Below, in pieces: positions 1 to 5,348 of a DNA stretch of 5,348 nt. This stretch comes from a virus (lineage: Duplodnaviria > Heunggongvirae > Uroviricota > Caudoviricetes), in IMG/VR virus record IMGVR_UViG_2695420602_000001, one strand, 5' to 3'. The first letter of the stretch is position 1, and each line of letters starts with the position of its first letter. Below the pieces are notes generated by a model. It had not been told where the DNA came from, ran no database searches, and worked only from the letters and a program-made list of their open reading frames with translations. The position numbers and the translations under genes are program-made.

Positions 1-356
1 TTGCTGATTACGTGCAGCTTTCCCTTCAGGCGGGATTCATACAGCGGCCAGCCATCCGTCATCCATATCACCACGTCAAAGGGTGACAGCAGGCTCATAA
101 GACGCCCCAGCGTCGCCATAGTGCGTTCACCGAATACGTGCGCAACAACCGTCTTCCGGAGACTGTCATACGCGTAAAACAGCCAGCGCTGGCGCGATTT
201 AGCCCCGACATAGCCCCACTGTTCGTCCATTTCCGCGCAGACGATGACGTCACTGCCCGGCTGTATGCGCGAGGTTACCGACTGCGGCCTGAGTTTTTTA
301 AGTGACGTAAAATCGTGTTGAGGCCAACGCCCATAATGCGGGCAGTTGCCCGGCAT
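1..356 (-). CDS. insB: IS1 InsB, partial (N-terminal ~118 codons; C-terminus lies beyond window start). Expressed naturally as the InsAB' fusion by -1 frameshifting.
   Basis: Minus-strand ATG at 354-356 begins MPGNCPHYG..., and the window start corresponds to ...[10 protein letters not shown] of InsB. No stop codon before the window edge. Confidence 0.85.
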
Positions 357-550
357 CCAACGCCATTCATGGCCATATCAATGATTTTCTGGTGCGTACC
401 GGGTTGAGAAGCGGTGTAAGTGAACTGCAGTTGCCATGTTTTACGGCAGTGAGAGCAGAGATAGCGCTGATGTCCGGCGGTGCTTTTGCCGTTACGCACC
501 ACCCCGTCAGTAGCTGAACAGGAGGGACAGCTGATAGAAACAGAAGCCAC
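275..550 (-). CDS. insA: IS1 InsA (transposition repressor / N-terminal part of the InsAB' transposase)
   Basis: 91-aa [25 protein letters not shown]...[10 protein letters not shown], with the zinc-finger-like CxxC...CxxC N-terminus and helix-turn-helix typical of InsA. Confidence 0.95.
293..299 (-). other. IS1 A6C programmed -1 ribosomal frameshift motif (AAAAAAC) at the insA/insB overlap
   Basis: Plus strand gtttttt at 293-299 is AAAAAAC on the minus strand, located just upstream of the insA stop codon (275-277), as in canonical IS1. Confidence 0.8.
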
Positions 551-582
551 TGGAGCACCTCAAAAACACCATCATACACTAA

Positions 583-605
583 ATCAGTAAGTTGGCAGCA
601 TCACC
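583..605 (-). repeat. IS1 left terminal inverted repeat (IRL, 23 bp)
   Basis: Plus strand reads atcagtaagttggcagcatcacc, the reverse complement of the IS1 terminus GGTGATGCTGCCAACTTACTGAT. Confidence 0.9.
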
Positions 606-802
606 CATCCGGCACTGACAGTTTACTGAAAGGATATTTCCCTGAAAAGTCAGACCATAACGCGAAAGCGCACGGCGAGGTAGCTGGTTCATAGATAGCC
701 TGTCGTTAAATTTTCGTCGACCGTGCGCTTCCGGTTGTGGCAACCCGCGAAATGGCGCGGCGGTAAGTATGGCGGGGTTATTCCTTCCCCGTTGAGGACA
801 CC

Positions 803-839
803 GGGTTGTCAGGTTGACCATACGCTTAAGTGACAACCC
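803..839. other. Perfect 9-bp inverted repeat (GGGTTGTCA / TGACAACCC) with 19-nt loop inside an ORF-poor segment; candidate RNA hairpin or protein-binding palindrome
   Basis: 803-811 gggttgtca is the exact reverse complement of 831-839 tgacaaccc. Neighbouring short palindromes at 733-745 (ggttg-tgg-caacc) and 746-759 (cgcg-aaatgg-cgcg). Confidence 0.3.
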
Positions 840-879
840 CGCTGCAACGCCCTCTGTTATCAATTTTCTGGTGACGTTT

Positions 880-922
880 GGCGGTATCAGTTTTACTCCG
901 TGACTGCTCTGCCGCCCTTTTT
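880..922 (+). terminator. Candidate rho-independent terminator (imperfect stem followed by T5 run)
   Basis: ggcgg (880-884) pairs with ccgcc (912-916) and cagt (888-891) with actg (903-906); followed by c-ttttt (918-922). The stem is interrupted by an asymmetric internal loop, so this is weak. Confidence 0.25.
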
Positions 923-1015
923 AAAGTGAATTTTGTGATGTGGTGAATGCGGCTGAGCGCACGCGGAACAGTTAAAACCAAAAACAGTGTTATGGGTGGA
1001 TTCTCTGTATCCGGC

Positions 1016-1058
1016 GTTAATTGTTAACTGGTTAACGTCACCTGGAGGCACCAGGCAC
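1016..1058. promoter_or_regulatory. Operator-like cluster of palindromes upstream of the small-ORF/exonuclease operon: tandem GTTAAC sites (1023-1028, 1031-1036) and CCTGG-N5-CCAGG (1041-1055)
   Basis: Palindromes read directly from the sequence, ~40-70 bp upstream of the ORF at 1092. No convincing sigma70 -35/-10 pair could be assigned by eye. Confidence 0.25.
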
Positions 1059-1091
1059 TGCATCACAAAATTCATTGTTGAGGACGCGATA

Positions 1092-1280
1092 ATGAAAACG
1101 TTATTACCAAACGTTAATACGTCTGAAGGTTGTTTTGAAATTGGTGTCACTATCAGTAACCCAGTATTTACTGAAGATGCCATTAACAAGAGAAAACAAG
1201 AACGGGAGCTATTAAATAAAATATGCATTGTTTCAATGCTGGCTCGTTTACGTCTGATGCCAAAAGGATGTGCACAATGA
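1092..1280 (+). CDS. Small hypothetical prophage protein (62 aa), first gene of the putative operon
   Basis: ORF MKTLLPNVNTSEGCFEIGVTISNPVFTEDAINKRKQERELLNKICIVSMLARLRLMPKGCAQ. GAGGA (1080-1084) sits ~8 nt upstream of the ATG at 1092. The longer ORF-track start at 987 overlaps the operator-like region and lacks an RBS. Stop overlaps the next start (ATGA). Confidence 0.5.
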   Translation: MKTLLPNVNTSEGCFEIGVTISNPVFTEDAINKRKQERELLNKICIVSMLARLRLMPKGCAQ

Positions 1281-1468
1281 ATTCAGCATTTGTGCTTGTT
1301 CTGACAGTTTTTCTTGTTTCCGGAGAGCCAGTTGATATTGCAGTCAGTGTGCACAGGACAATGCAGGAGTGTATGACTGCAGCAACCGAACAGAAAATTC
1401 CCGGTAACTGTTACCCGGTCGATAAAGTTATTCACCAGGATAATATCGAAATCCCGGCAGGTCTTTAA
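1277..1468 (+). CDS. Small hypothetical prophage protein (63 aa) with N-terminal hydrophobic segment (signal peptide or membrane anchor) and two Cys
   Basis: MNSAFVLVLTVFLVSGEPVDIAVSVHRTMQECMTAATEQKIPGNCYPVDKVIHQDNIEIPAGL. AAGGA lies 7 nt upstream of the ATG at 1277. The ATG overlaps the upstream TGA stop (1278-1280), implying translational coupling. ORF-track start at 1223 is an in-frame upstream extension. Confidence 0.55.
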   Translation: MNSAFVLVLTVFLVSGEPVDIAVSVHRTMQECMTAATEQKIPGNCYPVDKVIHQDNIEIPAGL

Positions 1469-1561
1469 AACAGTTCCGTAATAAATATCCGGTTTCATTC
1501 TTATATGCCAGCAATGGCAGGGATTTGTTCATCCTTAAATCTGTCATGAGGTTAAAACAAA

Positions 1562-4033
1562 ATGAGTAAAGTCTTTATTTGCGCCGCTATTCCTGACGAA
1601 CTGGCAACAAGGGAAGAAGGCGCTGTGGCTGTAGCCACAGCCATTGAAGCTGGCGACGAACGCCGTGCTCGAGCAAAATTTCACTGGCAGTTCCTGGAAC
1701 ATTATCCGGCTGCTCAGGACTGCGCTTATAAATTTATTGTCTGCGAGGATAAACCTGGCATACCCCGCCCTGCCCTCGATTCATGGGATGCTGAATATAT
1801 GCAGGAAAACCGCTGGGATGAGGAGTCTGCTTCTTTTGTCCCGGTTGAGACTGAATCCGATCCGATGAACGTCACTTTTGACAAGCTGGCCCCTGAAGTA
1901 CAGAACGCTGTCATGGTTAAGTTCGACACATGTGAAAACATCACCGTTGATATGGTTATTAGCGCACAGGAATTGTTGCAGGAAGACATGGCAACATTCG
2001 ACGGACATATCGTTGAAGCGTTGATGAAAATGCCAGAAGTTAACGCCATGTATCCGGAGCTTAAGTTGCACGCCATTGGGTGGGTTAAGCATAAATGTAT
2101 TCCTGGTGCTAAATGGCCCGAAATTCAGGCAGAGATGCGCATCTGGAAAAAACGTCGCGAAGGTGAACGCAAGGAAACCGGAAAATACACGTCTGTTGTT
2201 GATCTCGCCCGCGCCAGAACCAATCAACAGTACACTGAAAATTCAACAGGAAAAATCAGCCCGGTCATTGCTGCCATTCATCGCGAATACAAGCAGACAT
2301 GGAAAACACTGGATGACGAACTGGCCTACGCTCTCTGGCCTGGTGATGTGGATGCCGGAAACATTGACGGCAGCATCCATCGCTGGGCAAAAAAAGAAGT
2401 TATCGACAACGACCGCGAAGACTGGAAGCGTATCTCGGCATCAATGCGCAAACAGCCTGATGCCCTTCGCTACGACCGCCAGACTATTTTTGGCCTTGTC
2501 CGTGAGCGTCCGATCGACATTCACAAAGATCCCATAGCACTGAACAAATATATCTGCGAATACCTGACGACAAAGGGCGTGTTTGAGAATGAAGAAACAG
2601 ACCTGGGCACTGTTGATGTTCTCCAGTCATCAGAAACACAAACTGATGCAGTGGAAACTGAGGTATCTGATATCCCAAAAAATGAAACCGCGCCGGAAGC
2701 TGAACCATCTGTAGAGCGTGAGGGGCCGTTCTATTTCCTCTTCGCAGATAAGGACGGAGAAAAATACGGTCGCGCAAACAAACTTTCTGGTCTGGATAAG
2801 GCACTGGCTGCTGGCGCCACTGAAATCACAAAAGAAGAATATTTTGCCCGAAAAAATGGCACATACACGGGCTTACCGCAAAATGTAGATACCGCTGAAG
2901 ATTCAGAACAACCAGAGCCGATAAAAGTTACCGCTGACGAAGTAAACAAAATTATGCAGGCAGCCAATATCAGCCAGCCTGACGCCGATAAGTTGCTTGC
3001 TGCATCACGTGGTGAATTTGTTGAAGGGATTAGTGACCCGAATGATCCGAAATGGGTTAAGGGGATCCAGACCCGCGATTCTGTGAACCAGAACCAGCAT
3101 GAATCGGAACGGAACTACCAAAAAGCGGAACAAAACAGCACAAATGCGTTACAAAACGAGCCAGAAACGAAACAGCCTGAACCAGTGGCGCAACTGGAAG
3201 TGGAAAAAGTCTGCACCGCCTGCGGTCAGACCGGCGGCGGCAACTGCCCTGATTGTGGCGCGGTGATGGGCGACGCAACATACCAGGAAACATTCGATGA
3301 AGAGTATCAGGTTGAAGTTCAGGAAGATGATCTGGAGGAAATGGAAGGCGCTGAACATCCACACAAGGAGAACACTGGCGGCAATCAGCATCACAATAGC
3401 GATAATGAAACTGGCGAGACGGCAGATCACTCAATTAAGGTGAACGGTCATCACGAAATCACATCCACCAGCAGGACGTGTGACCATCTAATGATCGACC
3501 TTGAAACCATGGGAAAAAATCCTGATGCCCCGATCATCTCAATAGGTGCAATATTTTTCGATCCGCAAACCGGAGATATGGGACCGGAATTTAGTAAGAC
3601 TATCGATCTGGAAACTGCTGGCGGAGTCATTGATCGGGACACCATTAAATGGTGGCTTAAGCAATCACGCGAAGCGCAATCTGCCATTATGACCGATGAA
3701 ATCCCGTTAGATGATGCACTGTTACAATTGCGGGAATTTATCGACGAAAACTCCGGTGAATTTTTTGTTCAGGTTTGGGGAAATGGAGCCAACTTCGACA
3801 ACACGATTTTGCGCCGTTCATACGAACGGCAGGGGATCCCCTGCCCGTGGCGTTACTACAACGATCGCGATGTACGCACAATCGTTGAGCTGGGGAAAGC
3901 CATAGACTTCGATGCCAGAACGGCTATTCCATTCGAAGGTGAGCGCCATAATGCACTTGATGACGCCCGTTACCAGGCAAAATACGTTTCAGTTATCTGG
4001 CAAAAACTGATCCCGAGTCAGGCTGATTCTTAA
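1562..4033 (+). CDS. RecE-like exodeoxyribonuclease VIII family protein (823 aa): N-terminal region of unknown function, acidic low-complexity linker, CxxC-x9-CxxC zinc-ribbon motif, C-terminal DEDDh-type 3'-5' exonuclease domain
   Basis: Long uninterrupted ORF with GAGG 10 nt upstream. Residues ~474-600 (DADKLLAASRGEFVEGISDPNDPKWVKGIQ...CTACGQTGGGNCPDCG...) match what I recall of the central region of Rac RecE. The C-terminal ~180 aa carry DEDDh motifs: MIDLET (Exo I), VWGNGANFDNTIL (Exo II), HNALDDARY (Exo III, H-x4-D). Confidence 0.85.
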   Translation: MSKVFICAAIPDELATREEGAVAVATAIEAGDERRARAKFHWQFLEHYPAAQDCAYKFIVCEDKPGIPRPALDSWDAEYMQENRWDEESASFVPVETESDPMNVTFDKLAPEVQNAVMVKFDTCENITVDMVISAQELLQEDMATFDGHIVEALMKMPEVNAMYPELKLHAIGWVKHKCIPGAKWPEIQAEMRIWKKRREGERKETGKYTSVVDLARARTNQQYTENSTGKISPVIAAIHREYKQTWKTLDDELAYALWPGDVDAGNIDGSIHRWAKKEVIDNDREDWKRISASMRKQPDALRYDRQTIFGLVRERPIDIHKDPIALNKYICEYLTTKGVFENEETDLGTVDVLQSSETQTDAVETEVSDIPKNETAPEAEPSVEREGPFYFLFADKDGEKYGRANKLSGLDKALAAGATEITKEEYFARKNGTYTGLPQNVDTAEDSEQPEPIKVTADEVNKIMQAANISQPDADKLLAASRGEFVEGISDPNDPKWVKGIQTRDSVNQNQHESERNYQKAEQNSTNALQNEPETKQPEPVAQLEVEKVCTACGQTGGGNCPDCGAVMGDATYQETFDEEYQVEVQEDDLEEMEGAEHPHKENTGGNQHHNSDNETGETADHSIKVNGHHEITSTSRTCDHLMIDLETMGKNPDAPIISIGAIFFDPQTGDMGPEFSKTIDLETAGGVIDRDTIKWWLKQSREAQSAIMTDEIPLDDALLQLREFIDENSGEFFVQVWGNGANFDNTILRRSYERQGIPCPWRYYNDRDVRTIVELGKAIDFDARTAIPFEGERHNALDDARYQAKYVSVIWQKLIPSQADS

Positions 4034-4044
4034 TGTTCAACTGT

Positions 4045-4076
4045 CGCCGGTTGTGACTGGTATTCTGCAACCGGCG
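4045..4076 (+). other. Intergenic GC-rich hairpin between exonuclease and excisionase genes (9-bp stem, 14-nt loop, no U-tract)
   Basis: cgccggttg (4045-4053) is the exact reverse complement of caaccggcg (4068-4076). Lies 12 nt after the exonuclease stop and 30 nt before the xis-like ATG. Confidence 0.35.
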
Positions 4077-4105
4077 CTCGTCTAATGTAAGAGATAAAGA
4101 AATCG

Positions 4106-4357
4106 ATGAGCGAAGTAATCATGATTGTCTCTCCCGGCAAATGGGTATCCGAAGAGCAGTTAATTGCGCTGAAAGGAATAAAAAAAGGTACGTTAAAAAA
4201 GGCCCGGGAAAAATCGTTTATGGAAGGAAGGGAATATAAGCATGTCGCTCATGACGGTATGCCATGGGATAACAGCCCATGCTTTTACAACCTGGAAGAA
4301 ATTGATCGCTGGATTGAGCGCCAGGCATCAGCGAGACCAAGACGTCATCTTACTTGA
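4106..4357 (+). CDS. xis: Excisionase-like protein (Rac YdaQ / DUF1233-type putative Xis), 83 aa
   Basis: MSEVIMIVSPGKWVSEEQLIALKGIKKGTLKKAREKSFMEGREYKHVAHDG...NLEEIDRWIERQ. Small basic protein immediately upstream of the integrase; the KWVSE...AREK.FMEGRE...IDRWIE pattern fits enterobacterial prophage excisionase-like proteins as I recall them. Confidence 0.65.
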   Translation: MSEVIMIVSPGKWVSEEQLIALKGIKKGTLKKAREKSFMEGREYKHVAHDGMPWDNSPCFYNLEEIDRWIERQASARPRRHLT

Positions 4358-4391
4358 CTAAAAGCCACACTAACTAATGAGAGAAGTTGAA

Positions 4392-5219
4392 ATGAAATAT
4401 CCGACAGGCGTGGAAAACCATGGAGGGAAATTACGTATCTGGTTTGTTTATAAAGGCGTAAGAGTCAGGGAAAATCTGGGGGTTCCTGACACAGCAAAAA
4501 ACAGGCGCGTTGCAGGTGAACTACGCGCCTCTGTTTGTTACGCAATAAAAACTGGTGTTTTCGACTATGCAAAACAGTTTCCCTCCTCACGCAATCTGGA
4601 AAAATTTGGTGAGGCCCGACAAGATTTAACCATAAAAGAACTGGCTGAAAAATTTCTGGCACTGAAAGAAACTGAAGTCGCAAAAACATCACTCAACACA
4701 TACCGTGCCGTCATCAAAAATATCCTGAGCATAATCGGTGAAAAAAATCTTGCCTCATCGATTAATAAAGAAAAATTACTGGAGGTTCGTAAAGAGCTAC
4801 TGACTGGATACCAGATCCCCAAAAGTAACTATATTGTTACACAACCAGGGAGATCGGCTGTAACTGTAAATAATTACATGACAAATCTTAACGCCGTGTT
4901 CCAGTTTGGTGTTGATAACGGTTACTTGGCAGATAACCCGTTTAAGGGGATCTCGCCATTAAAGGAATCAAGAACCATTCCGGATCCTCTTTCGCGGGAG
5001 GAATTCATCCGTCTTATCGATGCGTGCAGAAATCAGCAAGCCAAAAATTTATGGTGTGTTTCTGTTTATACTGGCGTTCGCCCTGGTGAGCTGTGTGCAC
5101 TTGGATGGGAGGACATAGATCTGAAAAATGGAACAATGATGATCAGGAGAAATTTAGCAAAAGACCGTTTCACGGTACCAAAAACACAGGCGGGAACCAA
5201 TCGGGTCATTCATCGGTAA
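4392..5219 (+). pseudogene. int: Lambda/Rac-type tyrosine integrase, 3'-truncated by IS1 insertion (~275 of an expected ~400+ codons; catalytic H-x-x-R and Tyr region missing)
   Basis: Translation MKYPTGVENHGGKLRIWFVYKGVRVRENLG... resembles the N-terminus of IntR-type integrases, and TGVRPGELCALGWEDIDL carries the first catalytic Arg box. The ORF ends at TAA 5217-5219, which lies inside the IS1 terminal repeat GGTAATGAC starting at 5215. Probable start is the ATG at 4392 (GAGAAG RBS) rather than the ORF-track ATG at 4377. Confidence 0.85.
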
Positions 5220-5237
5220 TGACTCCAACTTATTGAT
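5215..5237 (-). repeat. IS1 right terminal inverted repeat (IRR, 23 bp)
   Basis: ggtaatgactccaacttattgat at 5215-5237 forms an imperfect inverted repeat with the IRL at 583-605. Confidence 0.9.
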
Positions 5238-5348
5238 AGTGTTTTATGTTCAGATAATGCCCGATGACTTTGTCATGCAGCTCCACCGATTTTGAGAACG
5301 ACAGCGACTTCCGTCCCAGCCGTGCCAGGTGCTGCCTCAGATTCAGGT
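5230..5348 (-). CDS. insB: IS1 InsB, partial (C-terminal ~39 codons; start lies beyond window end)
   Basis: Minus-strand reading ends ...[15 protein letters not shown] with stop (tta on plus strand) at 5230-5232, matching the InsB C-terminus. Confidence 0.85.

Follow-up and report, generated by a model that had tools for sequence, protein, structure and literature searches.

The cell-division inhibitor DicB of the Qin prophage of Escherichia coli K-12 and the lysis protein YdfD, whose gene overlaps that of DicB, are the closest described systems for the locus analysed here. DicB binds MinC, and ZipA targets the complex to the septal ring, leading to FtsZ-ring disassembly and filamentation (PMC6832061). 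Through the same MinC interaction DicB also inhibits ManYZ, with about 100-fold more lambda resistance and no growth on mannose, and this block excludes lambda-like phages by hindering entry of phage DNA (PMC6832061). Induction of YdfD lyses nearly all cells, dividing cells within hours, and lysis is averted by co-expression of dicB or sulA, both of which stop division (PMC8835842). YdfD binds IspG, as measured by pull-down, size-exclusion chromatography, isothermal titration calorimetry and in-vivo FRET, and the lysis is relieved by ispG overexpression or by HMBPP; YdfD is reported to inhibit this cytoplasmic enzyme of the MEP pathway and thereby to starve cell-wall synthesis of its undecaprenyl carrier (PMC8835842). 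In this mechanism, the work of one laboratory, binding was measured and enzyme inhibition is putative.

The window, i.e. the whole stretch of 5,348 nt that was analysed, carries two small overlapping ORFs on the plus strand. ORF1 runs from ATG 1092 to TGA 1278-1280 (62 aa) and ORF2 from ATG 1277 to TAA 1466-1468 (63 aa). A previous reading of the sequence alone could put a name to neither of them, and the protein searches it asked for returned DicB and YdfD. ORF1 is a full-length match to PF05358 (residues 1-62 of 62, 136.8 bits against a cutoff of 27, E 1.9e-40) and reaches 132.8 bits against the NCBIfam model NF049927, named ‘cell division inhibition protein DicB’, whose cutoff is 100. ORF2 matches PF07358, the DUF1482 family (91.1 bits against a cutoff of 25, E 3.9e-26), with residues 4-61 aligned to profile positions 1-57 of 57; it also matches phrog_1092 (E 7e-36), and no model matching YdfD was found in NCBIfam. 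Compared with K-12, all 62 residues of DicB and all 63 of YdfD are identical, and the sole DNA difference is a synonymous one in ydfD, G versus T at 1351. By megablast, positions 1092-1468 were found in 4200 of 5426 complete E. coli genomes and are 99.7% identical to K-12 MG1655 and BW25113, and the E. coli annotations of the matches read ‘dicB: cell division inhibition protein DicB’ and ‘ydfD: lysis protein YdfD’. We hold it as nearly certain that ORF1 and ORF2 correspond to dicB and ydfD of a Qin-type E. coli prophage, genes that have been characterised before; nothing counts against this identification. The product of ORF1 is the same protein as DicB of Qin (WP_000854559.1), encoded in the same place, 3′ of DicF and overlapping ydfD, and the 63-aa product of ORF2 is identical to YdfD of Qin (DUF1482/YebW family, WP_001083297.1).

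The prophage segment occupies positions 606-5214, which by nucleotide matches are 100% identical to many E. coli chromosomes, and an IS1 copy flanks it on each side, both with the same orientation. On the left the copy is partial (1-605, minus strand), with an InsA-like ORF of 91 aa (insA, 275-550, minus strand), and its end, which we take to be the IS1 terminal inverted repeat, adjoins prophage DNA at 605/606; of the second copy the start lies in the window (5215-5348, minus strand). Beyond 606-5214 the matches carry the annotation IS1-like IS1A transposase, and the IS1 half of the left-junction query matches tens of thousands of places. Between the two copies all features lie on the plus strand. 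The DicF small RNA (866-917; Rfam RF00039, full length, 76.7 bits against a gathering threshold of 48, E 3e-16), whose terminator U-tract extends to 922, is followed by a structured spacer that forms the dicB leader (918-1091, with an inverted repeat at 927-945/1056-1074), by dicB (1092-1280, including the stop codon) and by ydfD (1277-1468, including the stop codon). Downstream lie a gene for an 823-aa exonuclease (1562-4033), with a Rv2179c-like 3′-5′ exonuclease domain (PF16473) at residues 642-813 (E 2e-67) and a partial match to exodeoxyribonuclease VIII in NCBIfam, an excisionase gene (DUF1233, 4106-4357; PF06806, E 1.6e-31; annotated in relatives as excisionase family protein), and the 5′ two-thirds of a tyrosine integrase gene (4392-5214; Arm DNA-binding and partial Phage_integrase domains), which is truncated at 5214 by the right IS1, the full-length gene being 1281 nt in relatives. 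The long N-terminal region of the exonuclease matches only the middle of exodeoxyribonuclease VIII, and the gene is intact here whereas K-12 has a truncated pseudogene at the same position; judged by position, the 823-aa exonuclease would be the intact counterpart of the K-12 pseudogene ydfE.

The map of K-12 reads dicC, dicA, ydfA, ydfB, ydfC, (dicF), dicB, ydfD, truncated nuclease pseudogene, IS2, intQ pseudogene, rspB. In other strains this stretch is uninterrupted and holds the same exonuclease gene of 2472 nt together with xis and a complete int beside rspB, so that the gene order of intact relatives is dicA-ydfABC-(dicF)-dicB-ydfD-exo-xis-int-rspB, and the order in the window (DicF, dicB, ydfD, exonuclease, xis, int) fits the dicBF early-left operon. 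This synteny with K-12 and with other strains identifies the window as coming from a Qin-type lambdoid cryptic prophage of E. coli, of which it forms the int-proximal arm. The sequence-only reading had likened the position of the pair to that of genes in Rac-like prophages and had put it at the head of the exonuclease operon; instead the prophage is of Qin type, next to rspB in relatives, and within the dicBF early-left operon the pair has a central position, 3′ of ydfABC and dicF in intact relatives. Its proposal that the pair fills a slot of host-interaction genes which include a cell-division inhibitor was right on both counts, since the two genes occupy the early-left host-interaction position of a lambdoid prophage and ORF1 encodes the division inhibitor DicB.

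The difference from the K-12 Qin dicB locus lies to the left, where dicA, dicBp and ydfABC are replaced by IS1 at 605/606; the junction at 606 is 81 nt past the position of the ydfC stop codon of relatives. Transcription of the operon starts at dicBp, 5′ of ydfA, and is repressed by DicA and derepressed by the antirepressor Rem; a 1,608-nt ydfABC-dicFB-ydfD transcript has been observed, with an internal promoter not found (PMC10448788). The IS1 at 605/606 would thus sever dicF-dicB-ydfD from dicBp and DicA, and because of this cut the pair in the window is probably silent, or expressed just by read-through. No sigma-70-like hexamer pair was found on the plus strand between 560 and 1620. In RegulonDB, as cited in PMC11430063, additional promoters are placed upstream of dicF and of dicB, and therefore the IS1 insertion need not silence the pair.

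Neither IS1 junction (605/606 or 5214/5215) is present in the 5426 complete E. coli genomes, and the left junction was not found in viral contigs. The left junction was found once, in the metagenome contig SKEO01009092.1, which is 100% identical to window positions 361-4067 and carries a further IS1 after the exonuclease gene (locus L097). We also noted that the IS1 pair around a 4609-bp remnant (dicF, dicB, ydfD, exonuclease, xis and truncated int) resembles a composite transposon or the residue of deletions mediated by IS1.

The stop codon of dicB and the start codon of ydfD share the sequence ATGA at 1277-1280, and each gene is preceded by a Shine–Dalgarno sequence, GAGGA at 1080-1084 (7 nt 5′ of the dicB ATG) and AAGGA at 1264-1268 (within the 3′-end of dicB, 8 nt 5′ of the ydfD ATG), as had been read directly from the DNA before. 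We examined seven distinct dicB-ydfD loci, from E. coli, E. ruysiae, E. albertii, four phages and a metagenome bin with the label Veillonella, and each of them retains this 4-nt overlap. The overlap persists even in the PPompW-type allele, in which DicB is 61% and YdfD 48% identical to the proteins of the window and the start codon is GTG. In the informative pairwise comparisons among the seven loci (Nei–Gojobori), dN/dS was 0.10-0.71 for dicB and 0.10-0.59 for ydfD, with dS up to 0.85 and 1.66, respectively. All these ratios are below 1, and purifying selection therefore acts on both frames.

These data bear on whether the two ORFs could have arisen by chance in a region that is non-coding or makes only RNA, an idea in favour of which only the RNA-like leader 5′ of dicB can be cited. 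Full-length Pfam matches with E values of 1e-40 and 1e-26, a dN/dS below 1 throughout and published genetics and biochemistry on identical proteins leave it a vanishingly small probability. The sequence-only reading had named a non-coding substitution pattern as the observation that would speak against its pair of real, coupled small genes; the pattern is coding-like, and the pair is borne out by the family matches, the dN/dS values and the conserved overlap.

The geometry of the overlap and its conservation suggest that ATGA couples translation of ydfD to that of dicB. If translation of ydfD follows that of dicB in this way, YdfD would be produced only together with DicB, and never without the protein that restrains it. 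At the ydfD start the predicted local hairpin does not exceed shuffled sequence in stability (z −0.88). Some gene callers place the ydfD start at ATG 1223, giving an 81-aa protein; this start was rejected, as distant homologues start at the equivalent of 1277 and the Shine–Dalgarno sequence precedes 1277. The 62-aa DicB frame is contained in a 97-aa GTG-initiated frame at 987-1280, with which the title of a report by Cam et al. is said to agree. Locus L009 of Shigella flexneri has a seemingly disrupted ydfD copy at about 2970-3081, in which the match is limited to residues 12-63 and the frame from residue 12 stops after 26 residues.

ORF2 begins MNSAFVLVLTVFLVSGEP, and its hydrophobic start has also been written MNSAFVLVLTVFLVSG. 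The observation of a hydrophobic start and two cysteines holds, with a Kyte–Doolittle mean of 2.1 over 15 residues and with C32 and C45, which among 24 family members are invariant and conserved in at least 90%, respectively. From these features it had been proposed that YdfD is exported or anchored in the membrane, by a Sec signal peptide or a transmembrane helix, with the two-Cys domain outside the cytoplasm. A 19-residue mean of 2.0 (threshold 1.6) agrees with this proposal, with the qualification that the 19-residue stretch includes charged residues; the V-S-G before E17 fits the −3/−1 rule of signal peptidase, and the two cysteines are nearly invariant across the family. Association of YdfD with the cytoplasmic membrane was reportedly proposed by Masuda et al. 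in 2016. However, the hydrophobic run is preceded by M-N-S alone, so that Lys and Arg, and hence a basic n-region, are absent there, likewise in 24 of 24 aligned homologues, and the uninterrupted run covers just about 11 residues (A4-V14), short of the roughly 18-20 needed for a membrane span, and is then followed by G16, E17, P18 and D20. Homologues moreover carry polar substitutions within the run (N14/T15 in some, TITMTNGD or TVSMLTGGN in others).

AlphaFold2 models YdfD as a compact beta-beta-alpha-beta-beta-beta domain (mean pLDDT 85.9, pTM 0.62), with the reservation that the input was a shallow alignment of 24 sequences with members at least 70% identical and that agreement between models was uneven (85.9, 83.9, 73.4, 60.5 and 55.8). 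In this prediction the supposed signal or anchor would be strand 4-12, paired with strand 18-26 in a beta-hairpin with pLDDT 84-92. Searches for solved structures returned none for DicB and only chance matches for the YdfD profile (E ∼0.8-0.9), and no convincing structural neighbour of YdfD was found. The published experiments point to the cytoplasm as well: GST-YdfD is soluble and binds cytoplasmic IspG via residues 1-28, a C-terminal YdfD-CFP fusion fluoresces and gives FRET with IspG-YFP in vivo, and Cys mutants keep IspG binding (PMC8835842). Because of the soluble GST fusion, the IspG binding by residues 1-28 and the fluorescing CFP fusion, YdfD fits a cytoplasmic protein, which may associate peripherally with the membrane. 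With its short run, absent n-region, predicted beta-strand and cytoplasmic target, we consider an exported or anchored YdfD quite improbable.

The spacer between dicF and dicB has a minimum free energy of −62.9 kcal/mol (z −4.4), and none of 200 shuffled sequences was as stable. Its predicted closing helix of about 27 bp, formed by 918-945 with 1056-1084, covers the dicB Shine–Dalgarno sequence and matches the outer stem of a sub-threshold Rfam match to STnc100 (RF02076) at 915-1124 (34.4 bits against a gathering threshold of 47, E 7e-5). STnc100 and PasD are prophage sRNAs (bioRxiv 10.64898/2026.05.13.724894), and we treat the likeness of the dicB leader to STnc100 as an apparent resemblance only. 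Variable sites in the helix arms show only changes of U.G to C-G, i.e. wobble to Watson–Crick, and no double compensatory changes were seen in the leader helix; covariation support for the helix is therefore weak. The leader may serve as a substrate of RNase III or control translation, and a leader that buries the ribosome-binding site of dicB would, if this is true, bear on the control of dicB translation.

The flanks of DicF, the spacer and the first ∼16 codons of dicB (∼700-1140) were observed to be ∼99% identical in E. albertii and PPompW-type loci (L008, L012 and L013), and in the same three loci the rest of dicB and ydfD differ at 20-58% of third codon positions, with the switch in identity near codon 16-20 of dicB. 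The upstream DNA of E. albertii is conserved except for the DicF hairpin, which is replaced. The conservation of this upstream DNA reflects either a mosaic boundary or a constraint at the RNA level. Conservation of the leader was judged from a pairwise table, and a nucleotide-diversity profile over 70 unique loci was dropped because these loci had been selected for near-identical DicB and because gaps and replaced flanks inflated the upstream values.

Farther to the left of dicB, similarity to the window was seen to end exactly at 1006-1008 in 9 of 91 DicB loci, 84 nt 5′ of the dicB ATG, at the site TATCCGGCGTTAATTG...; the loci named as having the 1008 endpoint are L016, L019, L021, L026, L037, L039, L071, L075, L081 and L096. 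Their left neighbours differ and are partly truncated, and include a replication-like gene, DUF977, a SAM methyltransferase, a tail-fibre-like gene and dicA. None of the 1008-endpoint junctions carries an IS, and the 1008 site has no similarity to the int-proximal att region. One junction of this type is present in complete genomes, e.g. E. coli 1303. For all three junction types whose uninterrupted left sequences could be traced, TAnCC stands at the breakpoint, where the right side reads TATCC. Across complete E. coli genomes, positions 1008-1095 were found at 8723 places versus 6454 for 920-1007. We also observed a 22-nt direct repeat (607-628 and 1009-1030, 16 of 22 positions identical, 402 nt apart) that brackets the DicF region; the copy at 607-628 lies exactly at the IS1 junction of the window and the copy at 1009-1030 at the recurrent 1008 endpoint. 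A repeat of 22 nt with just two copies could be due to chance.

One way to read the endpoint is that dicB-ydfD with its 84-nt leader is a self-contained cassette, kept while its regulators were repeatedly removed, and that 1006-1008 (TATCCGG...) is a specific recombination or deletion site used with at least eight different upstream partners. We regard this as unlikely, though if it were true, the removal of regulators from an intact toxic cassette at a precise, recurring breakpoint would bear on the domestication of cryptic prophage toxins.

A related proposal concerns the two genes themselves, namely that dicB-ydfD is a cassette with the antidote first and the toxin second, in which the upstream protein gates lysis, coupling fixes the ratio, and the arrangement recurs with other partners. 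YdfD lysis is indeed abolished by DicB co-expression, the overlap is conserved at every level of divergence examined, and where dicA, dicF and ydfABC have been lost the pair remains intact and encodes identical proteins. Homologues of ydfD with 38-42% identity also occur in Klebsiella and Salmonella phages without DicB, where each is overlapped by an unrelated upstream small ORF of an uncharacterised family (phrog_22279 and phrog_3722), by 4 nt in the Klebsiella phage and by 1 nt in the Salmonella phage; the ydfD homologue together with the upstream small ORF spans 2391-2692 in locus L015 and 2301-2698 in locus L014. However, SulA blocks YdfD lysis too, and therefore protection by DicB is indirect, via halted division, rather than the action of a specific antidote. 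Moreover, the examples outside Escherichia are two only, and early operons of phages commonly contain small genes that overlap. An antidote-first cassette is thus a tentative and rather doubtful reading.

What we retain is dicB and ydfD as two real, overlapping genes of a Qin-type remnant. As the proteins are identical to those of K-12, DicB of the window would be expected from the literature to block division via MinC and ZipA and to exclude phages via ManYZ, and YdfD to lyse dividing cells through IspG unless DicB halts division. Work on dicB goes back to the 1980s and work on ydfD to 2016, so the finding itself matters little; its value lies in the correct filing of the window as a Qin-type remnant with two host-toxic genes and the DicF sRNA, severed by IS1 from the DicA-controlled promoter.

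Among known systems, the FtsZ-ring inhibitors Kil of lambda and KilR of Rac, an analogy already drawn in the sequence-only reading, share with dicB the genomic slot, from the immunity region to exo/xis/int, and the block of division. In contrast to these, DicB belongs to a different family, PF05358 being its only match at E ≤ 0.01, and it acts through MinC and ZipA, not directly on FtsZ. YdfD has been likened to phiX174 E, Qbeta A2 and LysM of phage M, small proteins that cause lysis by blocking the supply of cell-wall precursors (PMC8835842). No sequence relationship of YdfD to phiX174 E, Qbeta A2 or LysM was found. Unlike these single-gene lysis proteins, YdfD is encoded in a dsDNA lambdoid prophage that also has lysis of the holin/endolysin type, and its reported target, IspG, is cytoplasmic and acts upstream of the lipid carrier.
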